From contig JAETQI010000021.1 in assembly GCA_021770755.1 (NCBI GenBank), forward strand, positions 29,379 to 61,378: 32,000 nt of DNA, written 5' to 3'. The notes below the pieces were generated by a model. The model saw only the letters and a program-made list of their open reading frames with translations. It was not told the origin of the DNA and did not search any database. The position numbers and the translations under genes are program-made. Positions 1 to 13,931 of this stretch are shown here, piece by piece. Each line of letters starts with the position of its first letter. Positions within the stretch are counted from its first letter, which is position 1. The stretch is from Lachnospiraceae bacterium. GTDB taxonomy: Bacteria; Bacillota; Clostridia; Lachnospirales; Lachnospiraceae.

Positions 1-1758
1 AGAAAGTCCTTGTCCTATGGGGTGTGCTCCGAACATGTCCTTCAGGAACTGGAATCAGACCGCTATGCATCGGATGGATTGATGCTGGATATCCTTCTGC
101 AGCGTCTGGGACAATCCCCCGATAAGTTTGAGATGGTATTAGGCAGCAAACTGTTCAATATGATCCGACTGCGTGATCTGATCGAAGAAGCTGTTTACCG
201 CGGGAAAAGAAAACTGGCAGAACTGCTGCTGCAAAATTATCCGTCACGTACCCATGTCGATGAGATGTATCATCACCGCATGGAGGCATTTCTCATTTAT
301 CACATGGACGGAAACTGCGCGCTCGCGGCAGAACACCTGCACAGATCCATTATCCGCACGCTTCCTGCGTATTCTTATGAACACTTTTATGACCAGATGG
401 AACGCTATCTTCTTTCCACCGTGGAGCTGGAAAACCTGCTCGCCCTCGAACGGATGCATCTTGAAGCGGATCCCGGGGTCAGCTCGATCTTGCCGGTCTC
501 GAAACACCATCTCGAACGCTGTATGAATTATATTGAAAACCATTTCAGTGATGACGAGGAGCGTGCAAAGCTTATCAGCAAATGCGCATGGCTGACCGCA
601 AGGATCTGTTATCTGGAAAAAGACTATATGCAGGCTATTGTTTCCTGCAAAAAGGGTGTGGCACAACTGCGGAAAAATACGATCCTGTATTTTATGCTGC
701 CTCTGCTGGAACTGATGGTGCGATCAGAGACGGCACTTGGCATCGCACCGGATCGGAGCAAATGGGTACAATATTATGATATATTGACCTTCTTATGGAA
801 AGGGTATACCCCAAAGTGGTATCCGACAGACGCATTGCTTCACAATTGCTGTCAGAGGGACTATCATCTGGATCATGAGCTGATCCGGTCCGAGCGGGAA
901 TCAAAACGTATGACACAGGCACAGCTTGCAGCCGATATCTATCAGAACACGGAATCCCTCTCGCGTGTAGAGACCGGAACAGTAGCTCCGAACAATAAGA
1001 CCTTTGAGAAGATCATGGATAAGCTGGGACTGGAAAAGCGCAGATACAACGGGTGTGTTATCACCAGATCCTTTGAGGTGATGGAGCTGAAACGTAGTAT
1101 CGACGGTTTTCTGATGCGCCGGAATTATCAACAGGCAAGGGAGGCAACTGACAGACTGAAAAGCGCCCTTGATATGGAAATATCAGAAAACCAAATGGTC
1201 GTCAGCCTCTATGAAATTCTCACAGCGAAAGCTCTTGATGAAATGACATCAGCGGAAGCTCTTGAACAGTTAAAAAAATTGTCGGGAAGATTTATGCGGT
1301 TTGAAGAGAAAACTTTCTCACATATTCCTATGAGAAACGAGGTTCTGGTCATCAATAATATCTGTATTTCCCTATGCGGAACCGGACGCTGGGACGAGGC
1401 AGTTGATCTATATCGGATCGCATTAGAAAAAATAAGAAGCAGTAAGGTCGACGTAAAATACAGATACCGCTCTTATCAGCTCCTATACAATAATTATATA
1501 CATGAACACCAGGGCAAAGATATCGTGGAAGCGCTTGAGGAATTGCAGTTGGAATTCCTGTGTGGGAAGGCTATGACACTCCCCCTTTGTATCGATAACA
1601 TTTTACAAATATTGATCAGAAATGATGTTCCCATAAAAGACTGTGATGAGTGGATAAAAGCAGTATATTATATATGTGACTTGTTTTACTTCGAAAAAGA
1701 TAAGCAGATATATAAACAATTTCTTGAAAATAGTCGTTCTATAGAACTTATAGATTAG
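1..1758 (+). CDS. XRE-type HTH + TPR-like transcriptional regulator (RNPP/Rgg-like) with two HTH-repeat modules in one frame; 5' partial
   Basis: The frame is open from position 1 (aga aag tcc ttg...), so the listed TTG at 10 is not the true start. The N-terminus is the tail of HTH-1 (GVCSEHVLQELESDRYASDGLMLDILLQRLGQSPDKFE). A complete second HTH sits at aa ~300-345 (MTQAQLAADIYQNTESLSRVETGTVAPNNKTFEKIMDKLG, ATG at 910). Each HTH is followed by ~230-250 aa of helical-repeat sequence. Stop TAG at 1756-1758. Confidence 0.7.
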   Translation, partial: RKSLSYGVCSEHVLQELESDRYASDGLMLDILLQRLGQSPDKFEMVLGSKLFNMIRLRDLIEEAVYRGKRKLAELLLQNYPSRTHVDEMYHHRMEAFLIYHMDGNCALAAEHLHRSIIRTLPAYSYEHFYDQMERYLLSTVELENLLALERMHLEADPGVSSILPVSKHHLERCMNYIENHFSDDEERAKLISKCAWLTARICYLEKDYMQAIVSCKKGVAQLRKNTILYFMLPLLELMVRSETALGIAPDRSKWVQYYDILTFLWKGYTPKWYPTDALLHNCCQRDYHLDHELIRSERESKRMTQAQLAADIYQNTESLSRVETGTVAPNNKTFEKIMDKLGLEKRRYNGCVITRSFEVMELKRSIDGFLMRRNYQQAREATDRLKSALDMEISENQMVVSLYEILTAKALDEMTSAEALEQLKKLSGRFMRFEEKTFSHIPMRNEVLVINNICISLCGTGRWDEAVDLYRIALEKIRSSKVDVKYRYRSYQLLYNNYIHEHQGKDIVEALEELQLEFLCGKAMTLPLCIDNILQILIRNDVPIKDCDEWIKAVYYICDLFYFEKDKQIYKQFLENSRSIELID

Positions 1759-1760
1759 TA

Positions 1761-1832
1761 CTCCATCCAGTTAGAAATCAGAGTATGGTGCGAAACAGAC
1801 AGTCACAGACTCCAATTTCTAACCGGAGGGAG
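1761..1832. terminator. Long imperfect hairpin between convergent genes (possible bidirectional terminator)
   Basis: Left arm tccagttagaaatcagagt (1766-1784) pairs with actccaatttctaaccgga (1809-1827): 19 positions with 3 mismatches. It extends through ctcc/ggag-type pairs. No clear U-tract on either strand. Confidence 0.35.
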
Positions 1833-1834
1833 TA

Positions 1835-2005
1835 TTAGTATCCACTTTCAATTGAAGGAAAACTCGGACATTCTTCACTGCATACTGATATAGCATTTTT
1901 ATCCTGACTTCTTTCCAGACTTACTTTATATCCAGATGCAGAAACGACTACTGCCATAAGAGTTGAGAATAAAATTGTTTGTACGATTGTTTTTACTTTT
2001 TTCAT
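1835..2005 (-). CDS. Small secreted peptide (56 aa) with Sec-type signal peptide; candidate propeptide pheromone
   Basis: Below the ORF-track cutoff. ATG at 2005-2003, TAA at 1837-1835. My translation: MKKVKTIVQTILFSTLMAVVVSASGYKVSLERSQDKNAISVCSEECPSFPSIESGY. It has a basic n-region, a hydrophobic h-region and a VSA/SG cleavage-like site. AAAGGAA lies ~9 nt upstream of the ATG, and a TATAAT (minus strand, 2070-2065) lies further upstream. Confidence 0.5.
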   Translation of the reverse strand: MKKVKTIVQTILFSTLMAVVVSASGYKVSLERSQDKNAISVCSEECPSFPSIESGY

Positions 2006-2084
2006 AATACCTGTTCCTTTCTATGATATTTTGCAGTACAGTTGGTGCCATAATATTCTTGTCTATTATACAGGAAGCTCCCAT

Positions 2085-2149
2085 AAAGTACATGACTTTT
2101 TGCATATAATAAAAAAGAATTTTTTTGTATGTAAGAAGTCATGTACTTT
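2085..2149. promoter_or_regulatory. Perfect 14-bp inverted repeat in the divergent promoter region (candidate operator or activator site)
   Basis: aaagtacatgactt (2085-2098) is the exact reverse complement of aagtcatgtacttt (2136-2149). The 37-nt AT-rich spacer contains TATAAT (2105-2110). The right arm is followed by T7. Confidence 0.5.
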
Positions 2150-2229
2150 TTTTGATATCAGTGTATCATATGGATTATCCGGAATGAGGCATGCATTAGA
2201 CCGGAAATAATCAGAGAGGAGGTAAGCAT

Positions 2230-2313
2230 ATGAAAATCGTTTGTAAACCAGTAAAAGTAAAGGTAAATTCCCACGAAGAAGGTCCTTTATGCTGCAACGG
2301 CGTACAATTCTAA
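2230..2313 (+). CDS. Candidate RiPP precursor peptide (27 aa)
   Basis: Below the ORF-track cutoff. ATG 2230, TAA 2311-2313. My translation: MKIVCKPVKVKVNSHEEGPLCCNGVQF. A strong SD (gagaggaggt) ends 6 nt before the ATG. The gene lies 77 nt upstream of, and co-directional with, the radical-SAM/SPASM gene. Confidence 0.65.
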   Translation: MKIVCKPVKVKVNSHEEGPLCCNGVQF

Positions 2314-2327
2314 CATCGTAACTTACA

Positions 2328-2372
2328 GATCAAGCAGGAGACCTTGACCATGTCAAAGCCTTCTGCTTGATC
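2328..2372 (+). promoter_or_regulatory. Intercistronic stem-loop between precursor and maturase genes (candidate attenuator or stabiliser)
   Basis: gatcaagcag (2328-2337) pairs with ctgcttgatc (2363-2372). The stem extends about 3 more pairs including one G-U. The loop is ~20 nt and there is no U-tract. Confidence 0.5.
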
Positions 2373-2390
2373 AATTGAATAGGAGGTCAA

Positions 2391-3575
2391 ATGAAAGAAT
2401 CAATATTTAATTACCACTTCTTAATAAATAATAAGGAATACATTTTCAACACGAACAATGGCGGTTTGATAGAAATAAATCCCAATGGTTTTACTGATGA
2501 AGAAAAAAAGATTTTAAGTGAAAACCGCTTTTGGGTCGAGGATCAGTACGACGAAGTCTGCGAACTGGAAAAAGAAATAAATGAAAATATTCAACAAGGT
2601 AGTGAAGATCTAACGCTCACGCTCGCCCTGACATATCAATGCAATTTTCATTGCGTATATTGTTTTGAAGATAAGAATGACAAGGTCATGGAAAAAGAAA
2701 CAGCACAGGAAATCATTGAAAAAGTCGCGCAGATATTGTCCGAACATAAGTATAACAGATTAAGAATACATTATTACGGTGGCGAGCCTCTCTTAAATTT
2801 AGATGTATTGCTTTATTTTCATGAGAGGTTCAAAATAATTTCCGAAAATACAGGAATTCCATACAAACCATGTCTTACTACAAATGGATCCATGCTGACA
2901 AATGAATTGATTTCTTCCTTGAATTTTGATACAATACAATTAACATTCGATGGCTTAGCAAAAACACATAACAGCCTTAGAGTTTCAGATATATTTCGCT
3001 TTGACGAACAGGTACAATTGCTGGGGAGGATTCTGGAACATTCTGATACTCAGATACGATTCCGTGTCAATCTATGCCGGCAGAATAGAATTGAAGTCAT
3101 GGAATTATATCATTATATTACAGAAAAATACGGAAAGAAAAGAATCTTATTTATTCCAAACAGAATGATAAAATTCCATGAAGAAGATCAGTTTGACATG
3201 CTTAGTATAAAAGAATATTCAGATGCGTTATTAGAAATAAAGGATGCACTGTCTGATGAGTATAAGCTTCCAACTCCGGAAAGAACCCCTTGCAGTTTTG
3301 TGTGCAGAAATGCATTTTCAATTGATACAGACGGGAACTGCGATTTTTGCGAGACAACGAAGGAAAAGAAGAGTTACAAATTCAAAGATATTGATGTGCG
3401 TAAAAAGAGAGCAATCCACTTTCGGGAGGAATGCAGAAACTGCAAGTGTCTTCCAATCTGTCTGGGAGGCTGTGTCGTTCAATATAACCTCAATGCAGGC
3501 TCCTGTACTTATGAGAAATATCATATGGAGCATATCATAACGAAGTATCTCCAATCCGTCAATACCAATTCATGA
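2391..3575 (+). CDS. Radical SAM/SPASM-domain peptide maturase
   Basis: CX3CX2C cluster motif (YQCNFHCVYCFE), a GGEPLL motif, and a Cys-rich C-terminal SPASM-type region (CSFVC...CDFC...CRNCKCLPICLGGC...C). An ~85-aa N-terminal extension sits before the cluster motif, where RiPP recognition elements usually lie. AGGAGGT sits just upstream of the ATG. Confidence 0.9.
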   Translation: MKESIFNYHFLINNKEYIFNTNNGGLIEINPNGFTDEEKKILSENRFWVEDQYDEVCELEKEINENIQQGSEDLTLTLALTYQCNFHCVYCFEDKNDKVMEKETAQEIIEKVAQILSEHKYNRLRIHYYGGEPLLNLDVLLYFHERFKIISENTGIPYKPCLTTNGSMLTNELISSLNFDTIQLTFDGLAKTHNSLRVSDIFRFDEQVQLLGRILEHSDTQIRFRVNLCRQNRIEVMELYHYITEKYGKKRILFIPNRMIKFHEEDQFDMLSIKEYSDALLEIKDALSDEYKLPTPERTPCSFVCRNAFSIDTDGNCDFCETTKEKKSYKFKDIDVRKKRAIHFREECRNCKCLPICLGGCVVQYNLNAGSCTYEKYHMEHIITKYLQSVNTNS

Positions 3576-3597
3576 TAAGGAGTCCAAAATGAAAACA
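3553..3597 (+). repeat. 45-nt direct repeat, copy A (3' end of rSAM gene + RBS + first 3 codons of ABC gene)
   Basis: aatccgtcaataccaattcatgataaggagtccaaaatgaaaaca matches 8761-8805 at 42 of 45 positions. Confidence 0.9.
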
Positions 3598-5163
3598 AAA
3601 GTGCTGAAAAAATACCCCATCCAGGTTCTGATGATGACAGTCACGTTTCTGATCACGATGACGCTGCCCGTGCTGATGAGCTACCTGATCGACAATATTC
3701 TGGAATCAGGCGATATGCATACGCTGGTCCGGTGGTTTGCGGTCACATTCGGCGTGTCGGTCGTGGGATATCTGTTCAAATTCTATTTCTGTGAATATAC
3801 TCCCGTAAAACTGGGCATCAAAAATACATTTCAGCTACAGAAAAAATCCGCTTCGGATATCCTTAGGATGAATCAGTCCTTATATACGCAGAAGGACAAA
3901 GGATATTATTACAATGTCTGCTCCAATAGCTGCGCTTCTTACGGCGACCTGCATGAAGAGACCCGTCTGAGAATGATAAGCTGTCTGCTCTATATTTTTA
4001 GTATCCTTGCCGTTATTACCTGCGTGGATACCTTTTTTGGCATCTTTTTTCTGATCTACGGGGCAATTCTTGTCGTGATCTCCCTCAACAGCTCCAAGCC
4101 GCTCTATGCGATGCAAAAAGTAGTTTTGCCCACGCAGGATAAATATCTCAGCGGGATACGCAATATCATTGAGAACAAGGCTGGGATCAATGCCCTCCAT
4201 ACAGAGGATTACTTCGAACAAGAGTACACAAAATGTGTGGGAAATTACGAAAAATTTGTTCTAAGATATCGTTTCTTTGAATATTTCTGCAGTTATCTTC
4301 CCAGTATCATCAACCAGATATTTGGCGTGGCGTATCTGTTTATTGCCGCCGTGCTTGTATTTAAGGGAAATATCACCGCCGGCGTGCTGCTGATGGGATA
4401 TCAGTACCTTGGTTATTTCTCCAACCCGATCTCAACCGTGTGCGGTATCCTGATGCGCTACCGGTCAAACAAAATACATATTGAGCGAGTCGACGAGCTG
4501 ACGCTGGACGCAGAGAAGCCAGACGAGCTGACAGCGTATCGTACGGAGGAGGATACCATTTTTACAGCCAATGATTTTGATTTCTACAAGGGGAACCAGC
4601 CGGAAGATTTCCTGTATCACATTCAGCATATGGAACTGCAAAAAAACGGTCTGTATGTGATCAAAGGTGAAAACGGGAGCGGCAAAAGCATGCTGATGAA
4701 CCTGATCCTTGGAAATATCACACCCCGGAACTGCACCGGAAATTTCAGTGTATCAAAGGATACCGGCAATACTACATTTTTGACCTATCCTATTTTCACA
4801 GTTGACGGAAGCTTCGAGGATAATCTATACGAAAAACCTAAGATAGAGCACCTGATCAAAATGCTGGGCATTGATTTTGAAGAGAAAGAGATCACAAGCA
4901 ACCCGATCAACTTAAGCTACGGACAGCAGCAGAAGCTTGCCCTGTACAGGGTATTTGCGTCGGACACACCGGTCTTCTTTCTGGATGAACCGCTGTCCAA
5001 TCTGGATATCGAAACACAGGAAAAGGTTCTGGCATATATCAGGCATCTGAAAGGTACCAAAACGCTGCTTGTCGTCATGCACAGCAGCGAATTGGACGAC
5101 GCGGCGGATGATATCATACTGATCAAGGATCATCAGGCGACCATGATGAAGACAGGTGCGTAA
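3589..5163 (+). CDS. ABC transporter, fused permease/ATP-binding half-transporter
   Basis: Hydrophobic N-terminal half. Walker A GENGSGKS, signature-like LSYGQQQK, Walker B VFFLDEPLSNLD. No N-terminal C39 peptidase domain. Only a 13-nt gap after the rSAM gene. Confidence 0.9.
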   Translation: MKTKVLKKYPIQVLMMTVTFLITMTLPVLMSYLIDNILESGDMHTLVRWFAVTFGVSVVGYLFKFYFCEYTPVKLGIKNTFQLQKKSASDILRMNQSLYTQKDKGYYYNVCSNSCASYGDLHEETRLRMISCLLYIFSILAVITCVDTFFGIFFLIYGAILVVISLNSSKPLYAMQKVVLPTQDKYLSGIRNIIENKAGINALHTEDYFEQEYTKCVGNYEKFVLRYRFFEYFCSYLPSIINQIFGVAYLFIAAVLVFKGNITAGVLLMGYQYLGYFSNPISTVCGILMRYRSNKIHIERVDELTLDAEKPDELTAYRTEEDTIFTANDFDFYKGNQPEDFLYHIQHMELQKNGLYVIKGENGSGKSMLMNLILGNITPRNCTGNFSVSKDTGNTTFLTYPIFTVDGSFEDNLYEKPKIEHLIKMLGIDFEEKEITSNPINLSYGQQQKLALYRVFASDTPVFFLDEPLSNLDIETQEKVLAYIRHLKGTKTLLVVMHSSELDDAADDIILIKDHQATMMKTGA

Positions 5164-5188
5164 GGAACTCTGAAAAATAACGGAGAGG

Positions 5189-7228
5189 ATGGAGGTAAAA
5201 CAGTTGAATCTTCAGGAGGAAAAGGAACATTTACTTGTTGGTCTCAAAGCTTTGCAGGCTACGGCAGAAAAGCTGTTGAAAAAGGTGATGCACTACTCTG
5301 AAAATTACCGCGATTCTGCAAGATATGTCTGGGAGAGCCAGAGTGAATTTGATGAATACGAAGCGATCTTTAACCGGCTGCTGATCGACCAGGTAGTCGA
5401 TTCGGGGGAACAGACGAAAGAAAGGCTGCATCAGATCATCAAAATGATGGACTCTCCGTATTTTGCACGGATCGATTTTTTGATGGAAGAGGATCCGGAA
5501 CCCATGAAGGTTTACATTGGAAAATTTTCTTTCTGGGACGATAATGGTGAGTTCGAAGTATTTGACTGGCGTGCACCGATCTCCGGAATGTATTATGAGT
5601 ACGGATACGGAAATGCCCATTATGATGCACCGATGGGAAGGATCGAAGGGCAACTGGTCTGCAAGCGGCAGTACAAAATCAGCCGCGGAAATCTGGAGTA
5701 TGCGCTGGAGAGTGGTATCGGCATCAGTGACGAGATCTTACAGCAGGAGCTTGCAAAGAATGCGGATCATAAGATGGCAGATATCGTTGCCACGATCCAG
5801 AAGGAGCAGAATAAACTGATCCGGGATCTTTCATCAGATACACTGATCATTCATGGTGTTGCAGGTTCCGGCAAGACCTCTATCGCACTGCATCGGATCG
5901 CCTATTTTTTATACAAATATAAAGGTCAGATCACATCAAAGAATTTCCTGATCATCTCGCCAAACGGCGTTTTTGTCGATTATATTGCAGACGTCCTTCC
6001 AGAACTTGGCGAGGAGAATGTCAGATGCATTGCCATGGATGATATCGCGGAAAAAATTCTGGGAAAAGAATACCACTGCGAAAGAATGAATCTGCAGGCA
6101 GAACGGTATTTGCAAAGAGCCGAGGATACCGACTGGAAGAACAGAAACCAGTTTAAAAACTCTGTAGAATTTTTAAAACGATTAGATGATTATCTGCTGA
6201 AATGTGATAAAGAGAATTTTCAAGAAGAAGATTACCACTATGAGGGCGACATGGTCGAAGCTGCATATCTGCGAAAATGTTACGATATCAGGAAAGCACT
6301 GCCCGTAAGGGAACGGTTTCAGGAAATTGCCGCGCTGATATCCAGGGACATTCGGGAAGTTCACAGGAATGATCTGTTCGAGTGGCTGATGGAACGGTAT
6401 GACAGAAATCATGTACTGCAGCTATACCGGGATTTTTACGAAGATCTCGGTATGCCCGATTTTTTTCATTATGCGGAGGGCATGGAAATCGAAAGCTCGG
6501 ATGTTTTCCCGCTCGTATATGTGAAAATGTATCTGGAAGGTTTTATACGGGAACCGGAGATCAAGTACCTGATCATTGATGAAATGCAGGATTATTCACC
6601 GATCCAATATGCCGTCATCAATAAACTTTACAAGTGCAGAAAAACGATTCTCGGCGACTTCTGTCAGAATGTCGTTCCTTTTACAGGAAACCATTTTGAC
6701 TTTTTCCATCAGATGTATGCAAATGCGCAATTCATAGAAATTCATAAAAGCTATCGTTCCACTTATGAGATCATGAGCTATGCCGGGAAAATCAAAAAGG
6801 ATCAAAAACTTGATCCCATTGAACGGCATGGCAGTGAACCCTCTGAGGTCTCATTTGAGAGTCGCATGGACGAGGAAGCTTATCTGATCAGTGCAGTCAA
6901 ACGTGCACAGGCGGACAAGAAAAACGGCAAACTGGGCATTATCTGCAAAAGCCACCCGCAAGCGGAATCCTTGTTCCACACATTGTCTGGTGCTGGTGAT
7001 GTTCATCTGTTTACTTATGATACAGATGTGTTTTACAGTGGTGTGATCGTGACATCCGTATCACTTTCAAAAGGACTGGAATTTGACGAGGTCCTGATCG
7101 TGGACGCCGACCAGCAAAACTATTGTACACAATATGACCGCAATCTGCTTTATGTAGCGTGCACGCGGGCAATGCATCGTTTAAAGCTGCTTTATTGCGG
7201 AAAAAAGAGCAGATTTCTGGAAGGATAA
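5189..7228 (+). CDS. helD: HelD-type (helicase IV-like) UvrD/Rep superfamily-1 ATPase
   Basis: N-terminal coiled-coil-like segment, then YFARIDF...YIGK...DWRAPISGMYY. Walker A GVAGSGKTS, IIDEMQDYSP, KSYRST, and C-terminal SLSKGLEFDEVLIVDAD...LLYVACTRAMHRL. The start could instead be TTG 5204, which has better spacing to GGAGGT. Confidence 0.85.
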   Translation: MEVKQLNLQEEKEHLLVGLKALQATAEKLLKKVMHYSENYRDSARYVWESQSEFDEYEAIFNRLLIDQVVDSGEQTKERLHQIIKMMDSPYFARIDFLMEEDPEPMKVYIGKFSFWDDNGEFEVFDWRAPISGMYYEYGYGNAHYDAPMGRIEGQLVCKRQYKISRGNLEYALESGIGISDEILQQELAKNADHKMADIVATIQKEQNKLIRDLSSDTLIIHGVAGSGKTSIALHRIAYFLYKYKGQITSKNFLIISPNGVFVDYIADVLPELGEENVRCIAMDDIAEKILGKEYHCERMNLQAERYLQRAEDTDWKNRNQFKNSVEFLKRLDDYLLKCDKENFQEEDYHYEGDMVEAAYLRKCYDIRKALPVRERFQEIAALISRDIREVHRNDLFEWLMERYDRNHVLQLYRDFYEDLGMPDFFHYAEGMEIESSDVFPLVYVKMYLEGFIREPEIKYLIIDEMQDYSPIQYAVINKLYKCRKTILGDFCQNVVPFTGNHFDFFHQMYANAQFIEIHKSYRSTYEIMSYAGKIKKDQKLDPIERHGSEPSEVSFESRMDEEAYLISAVKRAQADKKNGKLGIICKSHPQAESLFHTLSGAGDVHLFTYDTDVFYSGVIVTSVSLSKGLEFDEVLIVDADQQNYCTQYDRNLLYVACTRAMHRLKLLYCGKKSRFLEG

Positions 7229-7239
7229 AGGAGGTATTC

Positions 7240-8742
7240 ATGAATAAAAATCGCAGATTACTGCAGCAATATCTTATAGAAAATATCGGGCTGGTCATTG
7301 CTTTGCTGACGCTTTCCATATTGATCAGTGTACTGAGTCTGACAGTGCCCTGGTTTATGCAGTATTTCACCGATACGGTCGTCATCGGCGGCGCGTGGGA
7401 ACATACAGGCACCGTGATCATCGCTTTTCTCGTCATCATCTTACTGCGGTTTGCGATCGATCTGATGTATGAACGGCTGATGGCTTATCTGGTTTTTCAA
7501 AAGATTACCTTGTCTCTCAGACAAAGAGTTGAGCATATCCTGATCTATATGAAATGCAGATACCTGTATAAAAAGAAAGAAGAGATCGCTGAGAAGGACA
7601 TTGAAACAATTCTGCTTGGAGATGTGGATGCTTTCAAAAATGTCTTGTCCCAGACGATCAAATTTTTTACAGAGGTGCTGAAACTGATCGTATACCTCTT
7701 TGTCCTGCTTTACTATTCGTTGCCTGTCGGGCTGATAGTATGCGCAAGAATCCCCGTCTATTATATTGTTTCCAATTTATATGACCGCCCACTGTCCACG
7801 CGAAGCGAGAAAAACCGGGCAGTCCAGTCAAAGCTGATCCAGAAGGTTAAGAAAATCTTTCAATCCCTGCCTGCCATCAAGACCTTTCAGATGGAATCGC
7901 GCGTTGAACAGGATCTGGATGGACAGGTGACAGACTATTGCAGGAATCAGGGAAAGATATCCATGCTCAACGCCGGATATCAGGAACTCAATACAGCGAT
8001 CAATACCCTGCTGAATGTCCTGGTTCTTGTACTGTGCGGCAGGGCGATCCTGCAGGGCAATATGACGCTTGGTACGATGATGCTGATCTCCAATATTCAG
8101 TCGCGAACGACCATGCCGCTATTTTTTTTCAACAATTACTATCTGCAGTATAAGAGCAGCTTTCCCGGAATATCCCGTCTGGTACGTTTTCTGGAGACAG
8201 AAACCGAAACTGCCGCATCCTGTCCTAATAAACCACACTTTGAGACACTGTCTCTGAGGAATGTGAGTTATTCGTATGTGGAGGGGCAATGTGCGCTGGA
8301 GAACTTTTCACTGGAGATCCGATCCGGCGATAAACTGATCCTGACAGGCGACAATATGGCTGGGAAGAGCACCCTTTTAAAATTGTTGGCGGGACTGCTG
8401 ACAGCCGACAAAGGGCAGATATTCATAGACGGAAAAGTATCCACGGATCATGAACTGCGAAATCTTGCGACACTTTTTCTTCAAAATCAAGACAGCTACT
8501 GCTATTTTGATCAGGAAGGTTCTGGCGGAGAAGTGCAGCTCATGAACCTGTCCATGATGCGTGATGTATCAAGCCCGCTGATCCTGCTGGATGAAGCGGA
8601 TGCAAGCATCAACCACAGCCGCCTGGATGAAGTCTATCAGTTTCTGGATTCCGATGCGACTGTCATCCTGGTCACCCACAGGAATACCGGGCACATTTTG
8701 CAAAAATACCCTAATGCGAGACTGATGCATATGAAAGCGTAA
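7240..8742 (+). CDS. ABC transporter, fused permease/ATP-binding half-transporter (second subunit)
   Basis: I chose the internal ATG 7240 (MNKNRRLLQQYL...), which follows AAGGAGG and lies 11 nt after the helD stop. Walker A GDNMAGKS, degenerate signature GSGGEVQ, Walker B ILLDEADASIN. The listed start at 7159 overlaps helD. Confidence 0.85.
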   Translation: MNKNRRLLQQYLIENIGLVIALLTLSILISVLSLTVPWFMQYFTDTVVIGGAWEHTGTVIIAFLVIILLRFAIDLMYERLMAYLVFQKITLSLRQRVEHILIYMKCRYLYKKKEEIAEKDIETILLGDVDAFKNVLSQTIKFFTEVLKLIVYLFVLLYYSLPVGLIVCARIPVYYIVSNLYDRPLSTRSEKNRAVQSKLIQKVKKIFQSLPAIKTFQMESRVEQDLDGQVTDYCRNQGKISMLNAGYQELNTAINTLLNVLVLVLCGRAILQGNMTLGTMMLISNIQSRTTMPLFFFNNYYLQYKSSFPGISRLVRFLETETETAASCPNKPHFETLSLRNVSYSYVEGQCALENFSLEIRSGDKLILTGDNMAGKSTLLKLLAGLLTADKGQIFIDGKVSTDHELRNLATLFLQNQDSYCYFDQEGSGGEVQLMNLSMMRDVSSPLILLDEADASINHSRLDEVYQFLDSDATVILVTHRNTGHILQKYPNARLMHMKA

Positions 8743-8760
8743 ATGTAACGCGGAATCGCA

Positions 8761-8805
8761 AATCCGTCAATACTGATTTATGATAAGGAGTCCAAAATGA
8801 AAACA
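8761..8805 (+). repeat. 45-nt direct repeat, copy B
   Basis: aatccgtcaatactgatttatgataaggagtccaaaatgaaaaca duplicates the rSAM-tail/RBS/ATG-AAA-ACA junction of 3553-3597, 19 nt after the second ABC gene stop. Confidence 0.9.
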
Positions 8806-8806
8806 A

Positions 8807-8932
8807 TTGGACGATATTGCAGACGGCGTTATACAGATCAAAGATCAGCAGGCGTCCATCATAAAAACTAAATGTAAATATAATACCTTTCAGTGCAAAC
8901 TGGCATGTTCCTCTGAGTGCCTGTGTTCGTAA
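8807..8932 (+). CDS. Cys-rich 41-codon frame (possible second RiPP precursor, or a frameshifted relic of one)
   Basis: My translation from TTG 8807: LDDIADGVIQIKDQQASIIKTKCKYNTFQCKLACSSECLCS, stop TAA 8930-8932. It is in the +1 frame relative to the duplicated ATG at 8797. That ATG frame gives only MKTIGRYCRRRYTDQRSAGVHHKN (stop at 8869-8871). The SD (8785-8790) is ~16 nt from the TTG, which is poor spacing. Confidence 0.4.
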   Translation: MDDIADGVIQIKDQQASIIKTKCKYNTFQCKLACSSECLCS

Positions 8933-8937
8933 AAGGA

Positions 8938-9924
8938 TCACAGCATCGAAGCCCGCAGCTCCTCCGCGCTCTTTGCACTCAGATACGACGGTGCGATGTC
9001 AAACACGGTCCTGCACCCGCTCTGCCCTTCCCCTGCCAGACGATGAGCCGCCCTCGCATAAGCGACGAGCACGCTCGCCGTGAATTCCGGATTGGAATCA
9101 AGCTTTAAGCTGTATTCGATCAGATGCCGGTTCTCCTTCTCCCAGCCGGTCACGCCGCTCCGCAGCACGAAACCGCCGTGCGGGATCCCGCTGTGATTGG
9201 CGAGAAGCTCCTCCTCGCTGATAAAGTGAACCGTCGTGTCGTAATCTGCAAAATAGTTCGGCATGGTCTTGATCTCCTCCTCGACCTTCGCCGCATCTGC
9301 CCCTTCCTCGAGCACAACGAAGCACTCGCGCGTATGCTTCTGCCTCGTCGTCAGCTCCGGGTTGCTGCCAGAACGCGCCGCCTCCAGCGCGGATTCGACA
9401 GGGATCGTGTACTGCTTCGCATTTCTGACGCCCTCGATCCGGCGGATCGCGTCAGAATGCCCCTGGCTGACACCTTTTCCCCAGAATGTATAGTCCTTTC
9501 CTTCCGGCAGGATCGCGTTCGCATACAGACGGTTCAGCGAAAACATACCCGGATCCCAGCCCACGGAAATGATCCCGATATGCGCATTCTCCTTTGCTGC
9601 CGCGTCCACCTTTGCGAAATGCTCGGGGATCTTTGCGTGCGTGTCAAAGCTGTCGACCACGTTAAAATACTTCACATACGCCGGCGTCTGTTCCGGCAGG
9701 TCTGTGGCGCTGCCGCCGCAGATGATCATCACGTCGATCCGGTCCTTCCACGCTGCCGCGTCCGATACCTTGCAGACTTTCGCCGTGTCCGTCAGGATCG
9801 ATACAGACGACGGATCCCTGCGCGTAAACACTGCCGCCAGCTCCATATCATCATTTTGTCTGACCGCGCACTCCACGCCGCGCCCCAGATTGCCATATCC
9901 TAAGATTCCTACCCGTGTACTCAT
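8938..9924 (-). CDS. ddh: meso-diaminopimelate D-dehydrogenase
   Basis: MSTRVGILGYGNLGRGVE..., GWDPGMFS, WGKGVSQGHSDAIRRI, MPHGGF and LDSNPEFTAS closely follow the Ddh sequence as I remember it from Corynebacterium. I chose the start at ATG 9924 after GGAGGAG; the listed 9969 start is an extension. Confidence 0.9.
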   Translation of the reverse strand: MSTRVGILGYGNLGRGVECAVRQNDDMELAAVFTRRDPSSVSILTDTAKVCKVSDAAAWKDRIDVMIICGGSATDLPEQTPAYVKYFNVVDSFDTHAKIPEHFAKVDAAAKENAHIGIISVGWDPGMFSLNRLYANAILPEGKDYTFWGKGVSQGHSDAIRRIEGVRNAKQYTIPVESALEAARSGSNPELTTRQKHTRECFVVLEEGADAAKVEEEIKTMPNYFADYDTTVHFISEEELLANHSGIPHGGFVLRSGVTGWEKENRHLIEYSLKLDSNPEFTASVLVAYARAAHRLAGEGQSGCRTVFDIAPSYLSAKSAEELRASML

Positions 9925-10075
9925 TTTTGTTCTCCTCCATGTTTTTAGTCGTTTTAGCTGCCCGTTCATATCACCTTGTCAGCAGTTCCCCCTGGTCTGT
10001 AACTCATATCTGTTCCCACTCTCTCTTTAATAACCGATATTCCAACCGCGTCTTCATCTTTCCATCATGCCATTC

Positions 10076-10555
10076 TTAGTCAATGTGTTCTGCTTCCCTG
10101 ATCAATCCGCATTTTTGCATGACCCTTTCAGAGCCGATGTTTTCAGCAAGACATCCTGTGGAGATCCTGTATACATTATTTTCGCAAAATGCGTACGCGA
10201 TAACCCGCCGAAACGCTTCCGTCATATATCCTTTTCCCCAGAACTTTGGATACGTAAAATACCCTGCCCCCACAATCTTCCCGACGGGAGTATCGTTCTC
10301 TACCGTATACCCGGCACTCCCGACCTGCTCATGTGAATCTTTTAATTCTATGTGCATAAAGTAAAACTTCCTGTCTGTCCGAGTCATATCCTCCAGGACC
10401 TTATGAAAATCCTCCTGTGCTTCTTCTTTTGTATGCAGTTGTATATCCTGCAGGTAATACATGGTTTTGACATCCGACTTTAGCCGGTAATATTCGTCAA
10501 AATCGGATTCCTGATAATCCCTCAGGATCAGGCGCTGCGTTTCCAGGTATATCAT
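10076..10555 (-). CDS. GNAT family N-acetyltransferase (RimJ/RimL-like)
   Basis: MIYLETQRLILRDYQESDFDEYY... and FWGKGYMTEAFRRVIAYAF are typical GNAT A/B motifs. The ATG at 10555 overlaps the upstream HAD stop in an ATGA arrangement. The listed N-terminal extension is Gly/Arg-rich out-of-context sequence. Confidence 0.85.
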   Translation of the reverse strand: MIYLETQRLILRDYQESDFDEYYRLKSDVKTMYYLQDIQLHTKEEAQEDFHKVLEDMTRTDRKFYFMHIELKDSHEQVGSAGYTVENDTPVGKIVGAGYFTYPKFWGKGYMTEAFRRVIAYAFCENNVYRISTGCLAENIGSERVMQKCGLIREAEHID

Positions 10556-11211
10556 CTGCCGCACCAGCCTTCTATTTTCCCCATAAGCTTTGGCAGATCT
10601 GCAAACGCCTCCAGCCGGTAGTCCGGCGCCTTTGCCTCGCCAAATCCGTATTCCGCATAGATAAACGGTATGCCCGCCACGCGCGCCGACTCCTCGTCGC
10701 CCGCCGTGTCGCCCACATACACTGCCCTCGTCACATGGTTGCGCTCCATGATGAGCTTGTTGTTCTCGCCCTTTGGAAGCAGGTTGTTGCCCCAGCACTC
10801 GATGTCGTCAAAACACTTCGCGAGCTTGTGCGCCTTGATAAAACTCTCGATATAACCCTGCTGGCAGTTGCTGACCACAAAGAGTTTGTACGTTTTTTTC
10901 AGCTCCATCAGGGTCTCCTCGAGCGCCGGATACAGGATTCCGCCGTGCTCTGACAGATAGGCATTCTCCACCTCGCAGCACTCGTCCATCAGCGCCTGCT
11001 GCTGTTCCGGCGTCGTGCCCGGGAACAGCTTCGCCGCGATGTCGGTCATGGGCAGTCCCAGACAGCCCTCCAGTTCCTCGAAGGTGATGGGGTCTTTTCT
11101 GTACTCCGAATGGTTTGCCACAACCTGGTTCCAGGTCTGGTGGATCCCGTCGAGCGCATTCCACATGGTTCCGTCCAGGTCAAATAGGATCGCTTCTATC
11201 GTATTCTTCAT
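10552..11211 (-). CDS. HAD-IA family hydrolase (phosphatase)
   Basis: Motif I ILFDLDGTMWN. Later VSN and a YVGDTAGDEESA motif. Start chosen at ATG 11211 (MKNTIEAILFDLDGT), 11 nt after the metG stop. Confidence 0.85.
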   Translation of the reverse strand: MKNTIEAILFDLDGTMWNALDGIHQTWNQVVANHSEYRKDPITFEELEGCLGLPMTDIAAKLFPGTTPEQQQALMDECCEVENAYLSEHGGILYPALEETLMELKKTYKLFVVSNCQQGYIESFIKAHKLAKCFDDIECWGNNLLPKGENNKLIMERNHVTRAVYVGDTAGDEESARVAGIPFIYAEYGFGEAKAPDYRLEAFADLPKLMGKIEGWCGR

Positions 11212-11222
11212 TATGATTCTCC

Positions 11223-13217
11223 TCACATGATCTCCGCCCCTGACGGCATCGCTCTCTCCGGCGTCATCAGCGCGAGCTTTCCGTCCGCGTCCTCCGCGCA
11301 CAGGATCATGCCCTCAGACAGGACACCCGCAAGCTTCGCCGGTTTCAGGTTTACGAGCACCATCACCTTCTTGCCGACCATCTCCTCGGGACTGTAAAAC
11401 GCCTTGATCCCCGATACGATCTGCTTCACTTGGGAACCGATCTTCACCTGGCTGCACAGCAGTTTCTTTGACTTTGGCACTGCCTCACAGGAGATGATCT
11501 CTCCTACCTGAAACTGCATCCTGGTGAAATCCTCATAGGTGATCTCCGCCTTGGGTTCGATATCGATCACATCGGTAACATCCGTGTCATTTTCCGGCTC
11601 CTGCGCCGCACCCGCTTCTGTCCTCTGCCGGCTGGCAAGCTCCTCCACCTTCGCATCGATCTCCTTCGGGTCAAGACGCGCAAAGAGGATCTCCGGCGCA
11701 TCTGTCACCTTTGTGCCCGACGCGTAGACGCCAAATGTCTTTGTCGACTCAAAATCGCGGACTTCGCTGCCCAACTGCTTCATGATCCGCTGCGCAGTCT
11801 CCGGCATGAACGGCTCAAGTAGCCCTGCACCGATCGAGATGCCTTCCACCAGATTGTACAGGACAGTCGCAAGCCTGTCCTTCTTTGCCTCGTCCTTTGC
11901 CAGCACCCACGGCTCCGTCTCGTCGATGTATTTGTTGCAGCGCTTGAACAGGTTGAAGATCTCCGTCATGGCGTCGGCAACGCGCAGCTCTGCCATCTTT
12001 GCTTCCACCCTGTCATACGTCCCTGCAGCGACTGCCTTCAGATCCTCATCGACTGCCTCCGCGGCGCCCTTGTCCTCCACCACGCCGCCAAAATATTTGT
12101 TGCTCATGGAGATCGTCCTGTTCACGAGATTTCCGAGCGTATTTGCCAGGTCGGAATTCAGGCGCTCGACCATCAGATCCCACGTGATCGATCCGTCATT
12201 TTCAAACGGCATCTCATGCAGCACGAAATAACGCACCGCGTCCACGCCAAAAAGCGAGACAAGGTCATCCGCGTACATGATATTCCCCTTGGACTTGCTC
12301 ATCTTGTCATTGTTCTGCAGAAGCCACGGGTGTCCAAACACCTGGTGCGGGAGCTCCTCGCCGAGCGCCATCAGAAAGATCGGCCAATAGATCGTGTGAA
12401 AACGGATAATATCTTTTCCGATCAGATGCAGGTCTGCCGGCCACAGCTTTTTGTACTGCTCTGTGCTGTTTCCGTCCGCGTCATAGCCGATGCCCGTGAT
12501 ATAGTTTGTGAGCGCGTCGAGCCACACGTAAACGACATGCTTGTCGTCAAAGTCAACAGGTATCCCCCACTTGAACGAAGTGCGCGACACACACAGATCC
12601 TGCAGGCCGGGAAGCAGGAAATTGTTCATCATCTCGTTTTTGCGCGATACAGGCTGGATAAACTCCGGGTGCCTGTTGATGTGGTCGATCAGCCTGTCCG
12701 CATACTTGCTCATCTTGAAGAAGTACGCCTCCTCCTTCGCCGGTTTTACCTCGCGCCCGCAATCCGGGCACTTGCCGTCCCTGAGCTGCGACTCCGTCCA
12801 GAAGGACTCACAGGGCGTGCAGTACATTCCCTCGTACGCCCCCTTGTAGATATCGCCCTGGTCATACAGGCGCTTAAAGATCTTCTGCACCTGTCTCTCA
12901 TGGTATTCGTCCGTTGTGCGGATAAACTTGTCATACGCAATGTTGAGCAGATCGCAGAGCCCGCGGATCGTTCCCGCCACACTGTCCACCAGCTCCTTCG
13001 GCGTCACGCCCGCCTCCGCCGCCTTGAGCTCGATCTTCTGACCATGCTCGTCCGTACCTGTCTGGAAAAAGACGTCGTAGCCGTCCTTCCGCTTATAGCG
13101 CGCTATGCTGTCCGCCAGCACGATCTCATAATTGTTTCCGATATGCGGCTTTCCGGAAGTGTACGCAATCGCCGTCGTGATATAATATTTTCCTTTATTC
13201 TGCATTGTCGCCATCAC
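11223..13217 (-). CDS. metG: Methionine--tRNA ligase with C-terminal tRNA-binding (EMAP/Trbp111-like) domain
   Basis: HIGH-type motif (KPHIGN), KMSKS motif (DKMSKSKGN), a Zn-knuckle-like CPDCG, and a C-terminal OB-fold tail (KLLCSQVKIG...VNLKPAKLAGVLSEGMIL). The exact start among the first Met/Val codons is uncertain. Confidence 0.95.
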   Translation of the reverse strand: MMATMQNKGKYYITTAIAYTSGKPHIGNNYEIVLADSIARYKRKDGYDVFFQTGTDEHGQKIELKAAEAGVTPKELVDSVAGTIRGLCDLLNIAYDKFIRTTDEYHERQVQKIFKRLYDQGDIYKGAYEGMYCTPCESFWTESQLRDGKCPDCGREVKPAKEEAYFFKMSKYADRLIDHINRHPEFIQPVSRKNEMMNNFLLPGLQDLCVSRTSFKWGIPVDFDDKHVVYVWLDALTNYITGIGYDADGNSTEQYKKLWPADLHLIGKDIIRFHTIYWPIFLMALGEELPHQVFGHPWLLQNNDKMSKSKGNIMYADDLVSLFGVDAVRYFVLHEMPFENDGSITWDLMVERLNSDLANTLGNLVNRTISMSNKYFGGVVEDKGAAEAVDEDLKAVAAGTYDRVEAKMAELRVADAMTEIFNLFKRCNKYIDETEPWVLAKDEAKKDRLATVLYNLVEGISIGAGLLEPFMPETAQRIMKQLGSEVRDFESTKTFGVYASGTKVTDAPEILFARLDPKEIDAKVEELASRQRTEAGAAQEPENDTDVTDVIDIEPKAEITYEDFTRMQFQVGEIISCEAVPKSKKLLCSQVKIGSQVKQIVSGIKAFYSPEEMVGKKVMVLVNLKPAKLAGVLSEGMILCAEDADGKLALMTPERAMPSGAEIM

Positions 13218-13366: not shown

Positions 13367-13678
13367 CTATGAACTGCGCCCCGAAAAAATCTTTGTAATA
13401 TCCTGATACCGATTCACCACCCGATAAATCTCAACTGCCTCTTTAAAAGCCTTATACATCACAACATAATCATTCCAAACCACATACTTATAATCTGTCT
13501 TAAAGCTCACACGTTTAGACAAATCTGCGCCAATATAAGGAAACTGCTGTATATTTTCAAACTGCTTATAAATCTCCTGAACTGTTTCTGATGCTTTATC
13601 AGCATTATCTTCTGCAATAAAATTTTTGATAGCTTTTAAATCTTCTGCAACTACTGGATTGATTCGCAATCTCACCAT
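13367..13678 (-). CDS. Type II toxin, ParE/RelE family
   Basis: About 103 aa, starting MVRLRINPVVAEDLKAIKNFIAEDN...YRVVNRYQD. It lies 4 nt downstream of the antitoxin stop, and a GGAGAG RBS sits inside the antitoxin's end. Confidence 0.8.
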   Translation of the reverse strand: MVRLRINPVVAEDLKAIKNFIAEDNADKASETVQEIYKQFENIQQFPYIGADLSKRVSFKTDYKYVVWNDYVVMYKAFKEAVEIYRVVNRYQDITKIFSGRSS

Positions 13679-13682
13679 AAAT

Positions 13683-13931
13683 TTACTCTCCAACTTTCGC
13701 TTTCAATTCATCCATTGTAAGCCATCCATTTCCGTCCTTGACAGCTTCCTCTGCCTCATGCAGTTTCTCCAACAGCTTTTTTTCTGCTTTTTCACGCTCG
13801 TAATCTTCTATATCCATTACCACAAATCTTCCTCTGCCATTTTTCGTCAGAAACACAGGCTCTCCAATCTGACAGTTTTTCAAAACCTCATTATAATTTC
13901 TTAAATCCGATACCGGTAATATACTTGCCAT
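13683..13931 (-). CDS. Type II antitoxin, Phd/YefM family
   Basis: 82 aa. MASILPVSDLRNYNEVLKNCQIGEPVFLTKNGRGRFVVMDIEDYE is the characteristic Phd/YefM N-terminal fold sequence. The C-terminal tail is acidic. Confidence 0.8.
   Translation of the reverse strand: MASILPVSDLRNYNEVLKNCQIGEPVFLTKNGRGRFVVMDIEDYEREKAEKKLLEKLHEAEEAVKDGNGWLTMDELKAKVGE

Follow-up and report, generated by a model that had tools for sequence, protein, structure and literature searches.

Several described systems pair a short precursor peptide with a radical S-adenosylmethionine (SAM) enzyme that carries a SPASM domain. The geopeptide system (TIGR04229/TIGR04280) has, to our knowledge, been defined computationally and its chemistry has not been characterised. 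For the streptococcal radical-SAM peptides there are precedents for the activation of a Cys thiol on an auxiliary cluster, for 4-residue sactionine rings and for quorum-sensing control (PMC9389541, PMC13361665). The stretch of DNA analysed here, 32,000 nt from an assembly of a Lachnospiraceae bacterium (contig JAETQI010000021.1, positions 29,379 to 61,378; hereafter the window), contains a 27-codon open reading frame (ORF), 2230-2313, in front of a gene for a radical-SAM/SPASM maturase. With a probability of roughly 0.8, the ORF is the structural gene of the precursor of a peptide that is made on the ribosome and modified after translation (RiPP), standing first in an operon with the maturase and an ATP-binding cassette (ABC) exporter, and its 27-residue product is very probably the substrate of the adjoining enzyme.

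The precursor and its counterparts make up a small, previously undescribed modified-peptide family in gut Lachnospiraceae, a new family within the radical-SAM/SPASM RiPPs. Literature searches returned no description of a CCxG Lachnospiraceae family, with an earlier mention in Haft & Basu 2011 or in the radical-SAM RiPP 'Atlas' paper being possible, and no published chemistry for either the geopeptide-type systems or this family. A preliminary description of the same DNA had already read 2230-2313 as a precursor gene, and this reading is supported both by the conservation of the ORF upstream of orthologous maturases and by the finding that the other candidate substrate, ORF 8807-8932, is a gene remnant.

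The probable precursor gene and its conservation

The ORF is present as first described, with an ATG start, a GGAGGT Shine-Dalgarno site and, in the C-terminal half of the product, an adjacent Cys pair within the core GPLCCNGVQF. The leader comprises approximately residues 1-17 (MKIVCKPVKVK...) and the core approximately residues 18-27, with the invariant Cys21 and Gly24. Two of the earlier remarks hold only in part: the GGAGGT site at its 6-nt spacing is not the sole best in the region, since the GGAGG of the radical-SAM gene itself is equally good, and the length of the peptide, although unusually small for a leader and core, is usual in this family (25-30 aa). Several other ORFs of like size lie within the same 650 nt, so that the size of 2230-2313 by itself carries no weight; what sets it apart is conservation that exceeds chance.

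The relatives of the maturase are a small set, from 94% down to 30% identical, and contigs were fetched for ten groups. A small same-strand ORF is visible before the first radical-SAM gene in nine fetched groups; the contig of L093 starts too near the gene. In the 11 locus groups of Table 1, the window included, the same-strand ORF stops 56-87 nt before the first radical-SAM gene, and it is 25-30 aa long in all groups except L094. A purine-rich Shine-Dalgarno site precedes the start of the orthologous ORF in all loci. The check proposed in the preliminary description, conservation upstream of orthologous maturases, thus came out positive for every group examined across the entire range of identity.

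Table 1 Probable precursor peptides encoded upstream of related maturases.
Locus group	Maturase identity to the window	Peptide
Window	reference	MKIVCKPVKVKVNSHEEGPLCCNGVQF
L081	82%	MKIVANPVKVKTNDRSHGGLCCNGIVF
L083	76%	MKIIFNPVNEKKNVRLNDILCCNGIVF
L085	52%	MKIISKPKKIKVHSSAEIKCKIGII
L088	52%	MKILCDPKKIKVDQIDIHICGTGNH
L091	50%	MKIISEPISKESVISTAQCCNGATIFATR
L092	50%	MRIISAPINKGDVISTTQCCNGVSVGGTTR
L095	47%	MKVISAPTSKGDSISAIKCCDGIVIVKK
L096	38%	MVIVAETKKSSTSIVARGNCCHGVVIN
L097	30%	MKVIVKSPTKEEPAATGNCCIGIIMC
L094	36%	...ELESRGNCCNGLQIC (43 aa, long acidic leader)

The sequences of the peptides are conserved at the N-terminus and in the core. First, Cys-x-x-Gly is common to all members and CCxG to most; when the ten members with a short leader are aligned, Met1, Cys21 and Gly24 do not vary and eight of the peptides have CCxG, and Cys21 is kept also in the additional members P0097 and P0098. 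Next, an MK(I/V)(I/V)xxP-type N-terminus is common to the nine short-leader members besides the window. Between the conserved N-terminus and core the middle of the aligned peptides is variable, with the reading frame kept. The nucleotide changes follow the same division: among the three closest loci those in the N-terminal part of the leader and in the core are mostly synonymous, and the middle varies freely without a frameshift, while a lineage with a 94% identical maturase differs from the window ORF by four synonymous changes and a single conservative one (E17D).

A strict test, which demanded that the ORF be 20-35 aa long, be preceded by a Shine-Dalgarno site, have C..G within the final 12 residues and end 40-100 nt before the radical-SAM gene, was passed by 8 of the 10 orthologous locus groups, and the two failures were due solely to the strict Shine-Dalgarno criterion. 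When each upstream region was simulated with a first-order Markov model, a qualifying ORF arose in at most 0.25% of the trials per locus. The conservation pattern and the simulation together indicate that selection acts on the encoded protein sequence; the 27-codon ORF is a real gene, presumably translated.

Promoter-region DNA is highly conserved in the close relatives, which would keep spurious ORFs as well, and 2230-2313 might on these grounds be an ORF that arose by chance where a 5′ untranslated region is conserved, with the true substrate being either the 56-aa product of 1835-2005, which contains Cys in several clades (VCSEEC, MCCEEY, VCCEEC), or the product of ORF 8807-8932. However, the orthologs of 2230-2313 outlast alignability at the DNA level, persisting where the surrounding DNA has diverged beyond alignment, and a search of positions 1700-2500 against Rfam gave only sub-threshold hairpin-like 'miRNA' matches and no RNA family. 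The orthologs of 1835-2005 in L091 and L092 are devoid of Cys, and all of the orthologs have a Sec-type signal, atypical for a substrate of a cytoplasmic radical-SAM enzyme. ORF 8807-8932, the alternative substrate put forward in the preliminary description, was ruled out as a precursor because it is a duplicated 3′ end of an ABC exporter gene: its product matches that of L083 at a blastp E-value of 1e-6, and over 35 nt its DNA has 91% identity with the L083 ABC gene at the 3′ end. Either of these ORFs as the true substrate is thus extremely improbable, and the reading of 2230-2313 as the precursor gene stands.

In protein databases the peptide has left almost no trace. An exact look-up of the 27-mer in the protein collection found it absent, and among 5.8 billion protein clusters there are only seven over-extended calls, none of them named; in the database search for the peptide such over-extended ORFs form the first row of the alignment. 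The family is therefore nearly invisible to annotation, although assembled gut metagenomes often contain the cluster, with the gene for the maturase or for its exporter present on hundreds of contigs.

The precursor ORF is separated from the maturase gene by a hairpin, which had been described as a 13-bp stem-loop and which is found at the same position in all 11 loci. In the window the outer stem pairs 2328-2340 with 2360-2372 and encloses an inner helix, beginning 15 nt past the stop codon of the ORF. The stem and its inner helix dominate the folded 77-nt spacer, which has an energy of -25.8 kcal/mol (z = -3.5), a value equalled by 1 of 200 shuffled sequences, and across the 11 loci the z-scores range from -1.9 to -5.6. 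The hairpin sequences are unrelated across clades, and a consensus fold of the spacers between peptide and radical-SAM genes yielded no structure because the spacers do not align; the hairpins are seen when the spacers are folded singly. Among the window, L081, L083 and L098 the changes within the hairpin are compensatory or wobble, and in L088, L091, L092 and L096 it is followed by a T-run and resembles an intrinsic terminator. The hairpin is thus conserved by position, and would fit a role in raising the ratio of precursor to enzyme transcript, either by partial termination or by stabilisation of the 3′ end, as is the case in lantibiotic and subtilosin operons.

The hairpin also brings up the question of whether the ORF might be a regulatory leader peptide whose translation, for example by pausing at the Cys-Cys codons, controls the hairpin and thereby the expression of the radical-SAM gene, and which is not a substrate at all. 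The shortness of the ORF and the strong hairpin that follows it in every locus are in line with such attenuation, as are the terminator-like T-runs in some of the loci. An attenuator, however, needs neither a conserved N-terminal motif nor an invariant C-x-x-G, and the CCxG motif likewise ends much longer peptides with acidic leaders beside distant maturases, those of geopeptide systems included. Moreover, the hairpin does not overlap the ORF, and no alternative anti-terminator pairing was seen on folding. A purely regulatory function of the ORF is accordingly very unlikely, and the 27-mer is better regarded as a precursor.

The maturase and the CCxG core

The fold class of the enzyme is evident from its sequence features and predicted structure. 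Pfam recognises Radical_SAM and Fer4_12 domains, and among the maturase relatives a Cys triad (C84, C88 and C91; CxxxCxxC) is invariant along with eight more Cys residues (C229, C301, C320, C348, C351, C357, C361 and C372), which correspond to a full SPASM domain. In the AlphaFold2 (AF2) model, which has a mean predicted local distance difference test score (pLDDT) of 84.5, the radical-SAM core is preceded by a domain of three strands and two helices with pLDDT above 90, possibly similar to a RiPP recognition element (RRE) and without a Pfam PqqD match. The thioether synthase CteB is the closest solved structure both by sequence profile (5e-18) and by fold, and the whole-chain Foldseek alignment of the two spans more columns than the length of either chain. 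The only NCBIfam models that match the maturase are those of RiPP maturases, all far below their cut-offs, with TIGR04463 as the best (112 bits vs a cut-off of 525), followed by CefB, Clo7bot and the geopeptide maturase TIGR04280 (104 vs 400 bits). Curated sactipeptide and ranthipeptide families (SCIFF/ScfB, PapB, RumC/RumMC, SkfB and GggB) are similarly unmatched by the window pair, as seen for ScfB (57.6 vs 425 bits), PapB (70.5 vs 340) and RumMC (37.3 vs 720).

In a search of 1.84 billion representatives, approximately 21 full-length clusters were found at 316 bits or more, followed by a gap and then by a continuum of about 2,900 representative SPASM maturases at E <= 1e-30, so the maturase clade is a small, distinct group inside a very large superfamily. 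Some of the distant members have two adjacent radical-SAM genes (L094, 2663-5218; L097, 2461-4959; L093, 162-2429), of which the upstream one encodes a weakly PapB-like protein that has no N-terminal domain. In the two such loci with a visible peptide, L094 and L097, the peptide carries an extra C-terminal Cys (...CCNGLQIC and ...CCIGIIMC, respectively).

A maturation pathway can be proposed in which the short leader would dock on the RRE-like domain of the enzyme through its conserved basic, beta-strand-prone N-terminus (MK[IV][IV]xxPxKxK), and the core GPLCCNGVQF would be modified at the invariant Cys-x-x-Gly. Most likely on the pattern of known thioether-forming enzymes, the Cys thiol would be held on an auxiliary Fe-S cluster, the 5′-deoxyadenosyl radical would remove hydrogen from a carbon close by, and a ring would be closed by a thioether bond, possibly a 4-residue one from Cys21 to Gly24. 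We infer a Cys-derived thioether because the Cys is invariant, because the nearest characterised relatives of the enzyme are thioether-forming, and because an extra Cys accompanies the second enzyme in the two-enzyme loci. The constant Cys(i)-Gly(i+3) spacing suggests a 4-residue ring to Gly, a ring size known in streptosactin (PMC9389541), although the Gly may alternatively be needed just for a turn. An obligatory role of Asn23 as the thioether acceptor, by analogy to NxxC, was rejected since position 23, between the Cys and the Gly, is variously N, D, H, I, K or G. The product would then be exported by the ABC transporter, with the hairpin keeping the short precursor transcript in excess over that of the enzyme, and a PlcR-like regulator would turn on the operon via an inverted repeat at the -35 region, probably on sensing a peptide derived from 1835-2005.

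The relationship of the core to other precursors was addressed with 80 distant relatives of the maturase, 24-36% identical, taken among the matches listed in a scan of a genome collection, by looking on the same strand for a nearby ORF of 20-100 aa whose final 16 residues contain CCxG. Seven such ORFs were observed among the 80 loci vs 0.38 expected (P = 1.6e-7). Three of the seven accompanying maturases, those of L039, L067 and L076, lie above the TIGR04280 cut-off with 479-546 bits, and the respective peptides end in ...SVCCRGASFPIR, ...AACCVGRPS... and ...LMCCWGPYSPTLM, with the cores CCRG, CCVG and CCWG; the L076 peptide matches TIGR04229 weakly (18.2 bits). The window peptide itself gives no match to TIGR04229 (cut-off 30 bits) at E-values up to 10. 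The earlier remark that the peptide resembles no precursor family that can be named therefore remains true with regard to Pfam and NCBIfam and needs to be amended for the CCxG core, which is common to peptides beside bona fide geopeptide maturases. CCxG is thus a recurrent core in this maturase superfamily, and the window family is a short-leader Firmicute offshoot and a distant relative of the geopeptide class that fails geopeptide membership itself.

An ORF with two copies of TVNCCNGRVGR (L041, 7238-7500) was also noticed directly downstream of a distant SPASM maturase in Afifella pfennigii, and may be a multi-core CCxG-class precursor in an alphaproteobacterium.

A number of points weigh against the proposed role of the 27-mer. 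To begin with, the case is built on sequences and structural models. On the side of homology, the peptide has nothing above threshold in Pfam and NCBIfam (RumC, 14.4 bits vs a cut-off of 40), and the maturase lies far below every curated cut-off, so that its chemistry is not transferable by homology. The structure ranking has the cyclopropyl synthase TigE and anSME as close matches after CteB, and SPASM enzymes also give C-C and C-O links, epimers, cyclopropanes and formylglycine. Among the proteins of the window, Pfam and NCBIfam find neither a leader protease nor a peptidase domain, and the hairpin in the window has no T-run after its stem and is not called by a terminator scan. Finally, the maturase form with the largest number of contigs is a truncated call of 295 aa (402 contigs), which arises from a 1-nt deletion (A7 to A6 at 2503-2509, seen in L098-L101) that shifts the frame at a point upstream of the CxxxCxxC motif. 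In L099 and L100 the maturase gene has a GAG-to-TAG nonsense change in addition, and in the frameshifted alleles the Shine-Dalgarno site of the peptide is weakened (GGAGG to CGAGG), with the peptide ORF intact. The deletion could stem from decay, from phase variation at the homopolymer or from a systematic assembly error; with the most frequently assembled allele frameshifted, the system would seem dispensable and often inactive.

Proposed regulation and export, and genomic context

The conserved cassette consists of a gene for a tandem PlcR-like regulator, a divergent gene for a candidate secreted pro-pheromone, an inverted repeat as candidate operator, and the genes for the peptide, the radical-SAM enzyme and the ABC exporter (Table 2). 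Pfam detects HTH_3, a helix-turn-helix (HTH) domain, at residues 292-341 of the regulator, and a second, N-terminal HTH is seen by alignment with orthologs of 596-609 aa; the full-length form is represented by P0101 with 605 aa. The AF2 model (pLDDT 81) has PlcR as its top Foldseek matches (2QFC, 3U3W and 4FSC), with target TM-scores of 0.60-0.65 over about 290 columns; the alignments cover the whole of PlcR but half of the regulator, and the matched PlcR structures include those with PapR and DNA. By sequence, the regulator matches solved structures in the HTH alone, with no detectable similarity to PlcR. The arrangement of a PlcR-type receptor, an N-terminal XRE-type HTH followed by a domain of the tetratricopeptide repeat (TPR) kind, is present twice in tandem, with each half encoded by a gene of its own in L095. 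The architecture of about 600 aa recurs in at least 142 clusters at 90% identity, of which the named ones are from Lachnospiraceae.

Table 2 Features of the locus in the window.
Feature	Position	Strand	Remarks
Regulator, two tandem HTH + helical-repeat (PlcR-like) modules	1-1758	+	first ~24 codons cut by the window start
Candidate secreted pro-pheromone	1835-2005	-	56 aa, MKKVKTIVQTILFSTLMAVVVSASGYKVSLERSQDKNAISVCSEECPSFPSIESGY
Inverted repeat, candidate operator	2085-2149		perfect 14-nt arms AAAGTACATGACTT (2085-2098) and AAGTCATGTACTTT (2136-2149)
Shine-Dalgarno site GGAGGT	2218-2223	+	6-nt spacer to the ATG of 2230-2313
Precursor peptide gene	2230-2313	+	ATG start, 27 aa, product MKIVCKPVKVKVNSHEEGPLCCNGVQF
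Conserved-position hairpin	2328-2372	+	putative attenuator or transcript stabiliser
Radical-SAM/SPASM peptide maturase	2391-3575	+	394 aa, CNFHCVYC cluster motif, own GGAGG site 2382-2386
ABC exporter (permease + ATPase)	3589-5163	+	524 aa, no peptidase domain
HelD-like helicase	5189-7228	+	NCBIfam HelD_BACSU, 494 bits vs cut-off 419
Second ABC transporter	7159-8742	+	accessory segment with HelD
ABC-exporter 3′-end remnant, 41-codon ORF	8807-8932	+	residues 1-21 match residues 502-522 of cluster ABC exporters

The N-terminus of the 56-aa product of 1835-2005 resembles a signal peptide (MKKVKTIVQTILFSTLMAVVVSAS...), and its tail is clade-specific. The ORF converges with the regulator gene and diverges from the peptide operon, and counterparts with this placement and orientation are found in L081, L083, L085, L088, L091, L092 and L095, and were predicted by gene callers in several of the loci. 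The product looks like a candidate PapR-type pro-pheromone. Where the regulator gene and the 56-aa ORF converge, a hairpin at 1758-1835 was seen only through miRNA-like Rfam matches below threshold; it probably serves as a bidirectional terminator.

Beyond the perfect arms the inverted repeat extends over 2064-2114 and 2120-2170, and the right perfect arm overlaps with the -35 position that goes with a TATCAT -10 box (2164-2169). The repeat is invariant in the window, L081 and L083, a related GTACATAACTTTT...AAAAGTTATGTAC repeat is present in L085 and L088, and different inverted repeats are found in L091, L092 and L095, whose regulators are divergent. By analogy with PlcR, we infer from this architecture a PapR/PlcR-type circuit that would drive the modified-peptide operon through presumed binding and induction. 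A parallel exists in the SHP/Rgg control of streptococcal radical-SAM peptides (PMC13361665).

The same architecture might suggest that the modified peptide, still a radical-SAM-modified precursor, is itself the autoinducer of the adjacent PlcR-like regulator, and thus a signal and not an antimicrobial or fratricidal agent. The PlcR-type fold of the regulator, the placement of the peptide operon directly downstream of an operator-like inverted repeat, the small size of the product and the exporter without a peptidase domain are all compatible with this possibility, and ranthipeptides derived from SCIFF are reportedly tied to quorum sensing in clostridia. However, the separate, conserved ORF with a Sec signal and a clade-specific tail suits the PapR-type role better, the core LCCNG[IV]xF is nearly identical across loci whose regulators are only 71-73% identical, and the cassette has no oligopeptide importer. 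The modified peptide is therefore unlikely to be the inducer, and the favoured arrangement is one in which the 27-mer is the precursor of the product and a peptide from 1835-2005 the probable signal.

An ABC exporter gene directly follows the radical-SAM gene in all loci with a single radical-SAM gene. The segment with the HelD-like helicase and the second ABC transporter (5189-8742) is absent from L081, L083, L085, L088, L091, L092, L095 and L096, and in L098-L101 the ABC gene is succeeded by one for a UvrD/HelD-type helicase; the segment is accessory and lineage-specific and lies outside the conserved cassette. The position of the 8807-8932 remnant just past it points to recombination at the end of the first ABC gene as the way in which the segment was inserted. 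The cluster (1-8900) has a G+C content of 34-47%, as opposed to 55-57% in the adjacent genes from diaminopimelate dehydrogenase to methionyl-tRNA synthetase (9000-13000), and in L083 and L098 the same cassette is located between grpE/dnaK and the dehydrogenase gene. The contrast in G+C and the shared location would fit an island that was acquired. NCBI applies the label 'Lachnospiraceae bacterium' to proteins with at least 90% identity to the first ABC transporter, as well as to homologs of the regulator. Further along the window, a 108-aa ORF on the minus strand (13367-13693) encodes a product that may be a RelE/ParE-type toxin.

Implications and comparison with known systems

The family combines a testable core motif and an unusual regulator in a newly recognised group of radical-SAM/SPASM RiPPs, and the cassette provides a compact model for peptide-controlled production of modified peptides in strict gut anaerobes, outside of the streptococci. 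As the common CCxG core ties the gut clade to geopeptide-type systems, a single assigned reaction could cover a large part of the roughly 2,900 maturases. It is tempting to speculate further, though this is doubtful as a whole, that the CCxG core is the substrate of an undescribed radical-SAM reaction that the gut clade has in common with the geopeptide systems and with further, unassigned SPASM maturases of organisms from Clostridia to Alphaproteobacteria, that the gut product is a social molecule acting in fratricide or as a signal under a new tandem-PlcR quorum-sensing receptor, and that the frequent loss of function of the maturase reflects cheating or phase variation.

Similar in its gene arrangement and core is the system of the geopeptides, in which a short peptide likewise lies immediately upstream of a radical-SAM/SPASM maturase and adjacent Cys residues are followed by x-Gly in the C-terminal core (LCCNGVQF in the window). 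In contrast, the leader is short and basic in the window (about 17 aa) and long and acidic in geopeptides, the host is a gut member of Lachnospiraceae and not of Desulfobacterota, and a PlcR-like regulator and an ABC exporter belong to the window cassette. With CteB and its substrate SCIFF the window pair shares a Cys-containing core and an overall fold, the match to CteB possibly taking in the N-terminal domain. The identity to CteB is nevertheless only 18-20%, and the peptide has one or two Cys in place of six and matches no SCIFF model.

A further likeness exists to the streptococcal radical-SAM peptides (streptide, streptosactin, NxxC and enteropeptins), whose operons likewise combine a precursor of very small size with a single radical-SAM/SPASM enzyme and a protease-free exporter under a peptide-sensing regulator of the RRNPP type (PMC9389541, PMC13361665). 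Several of these enzymes make small Cys thioether rings, including the 4-residue sactionine rings in streptosactin. Unlike in the streptococcal systems, the regulator in the window is a tandem PlcR-like protein of about 600 aa and not an Rgg, and the candidate pheromone has a Sec-type signal, dissimilar to SHP. The maturase is below the curated cut-offs of the models it matches (46 vs 600 bits for the ryptide maturase), as is the first exporter for GggC (55 vs 750 bits), and C-x-x-G or CCxG is not among the motifs of the streptococcal subfamilies named in PMC9389541 and PMC13361665.

Finally, the regulatory part of the cassette corresponds to PlcR-PapR of the Bacillus cereus group in the HTH and TPR-like fold of the regulator, in the small neighbouring gene for a pro-peptide with a signal peptide and in the palindromic operator upstream of the target promoter. 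It differs in that a single chain contains two fused PlcR-like modules, the genes for the pro-peptide and the regulator converge instead of being co-directional, and the half-sites of the operator are 37 nt apart.

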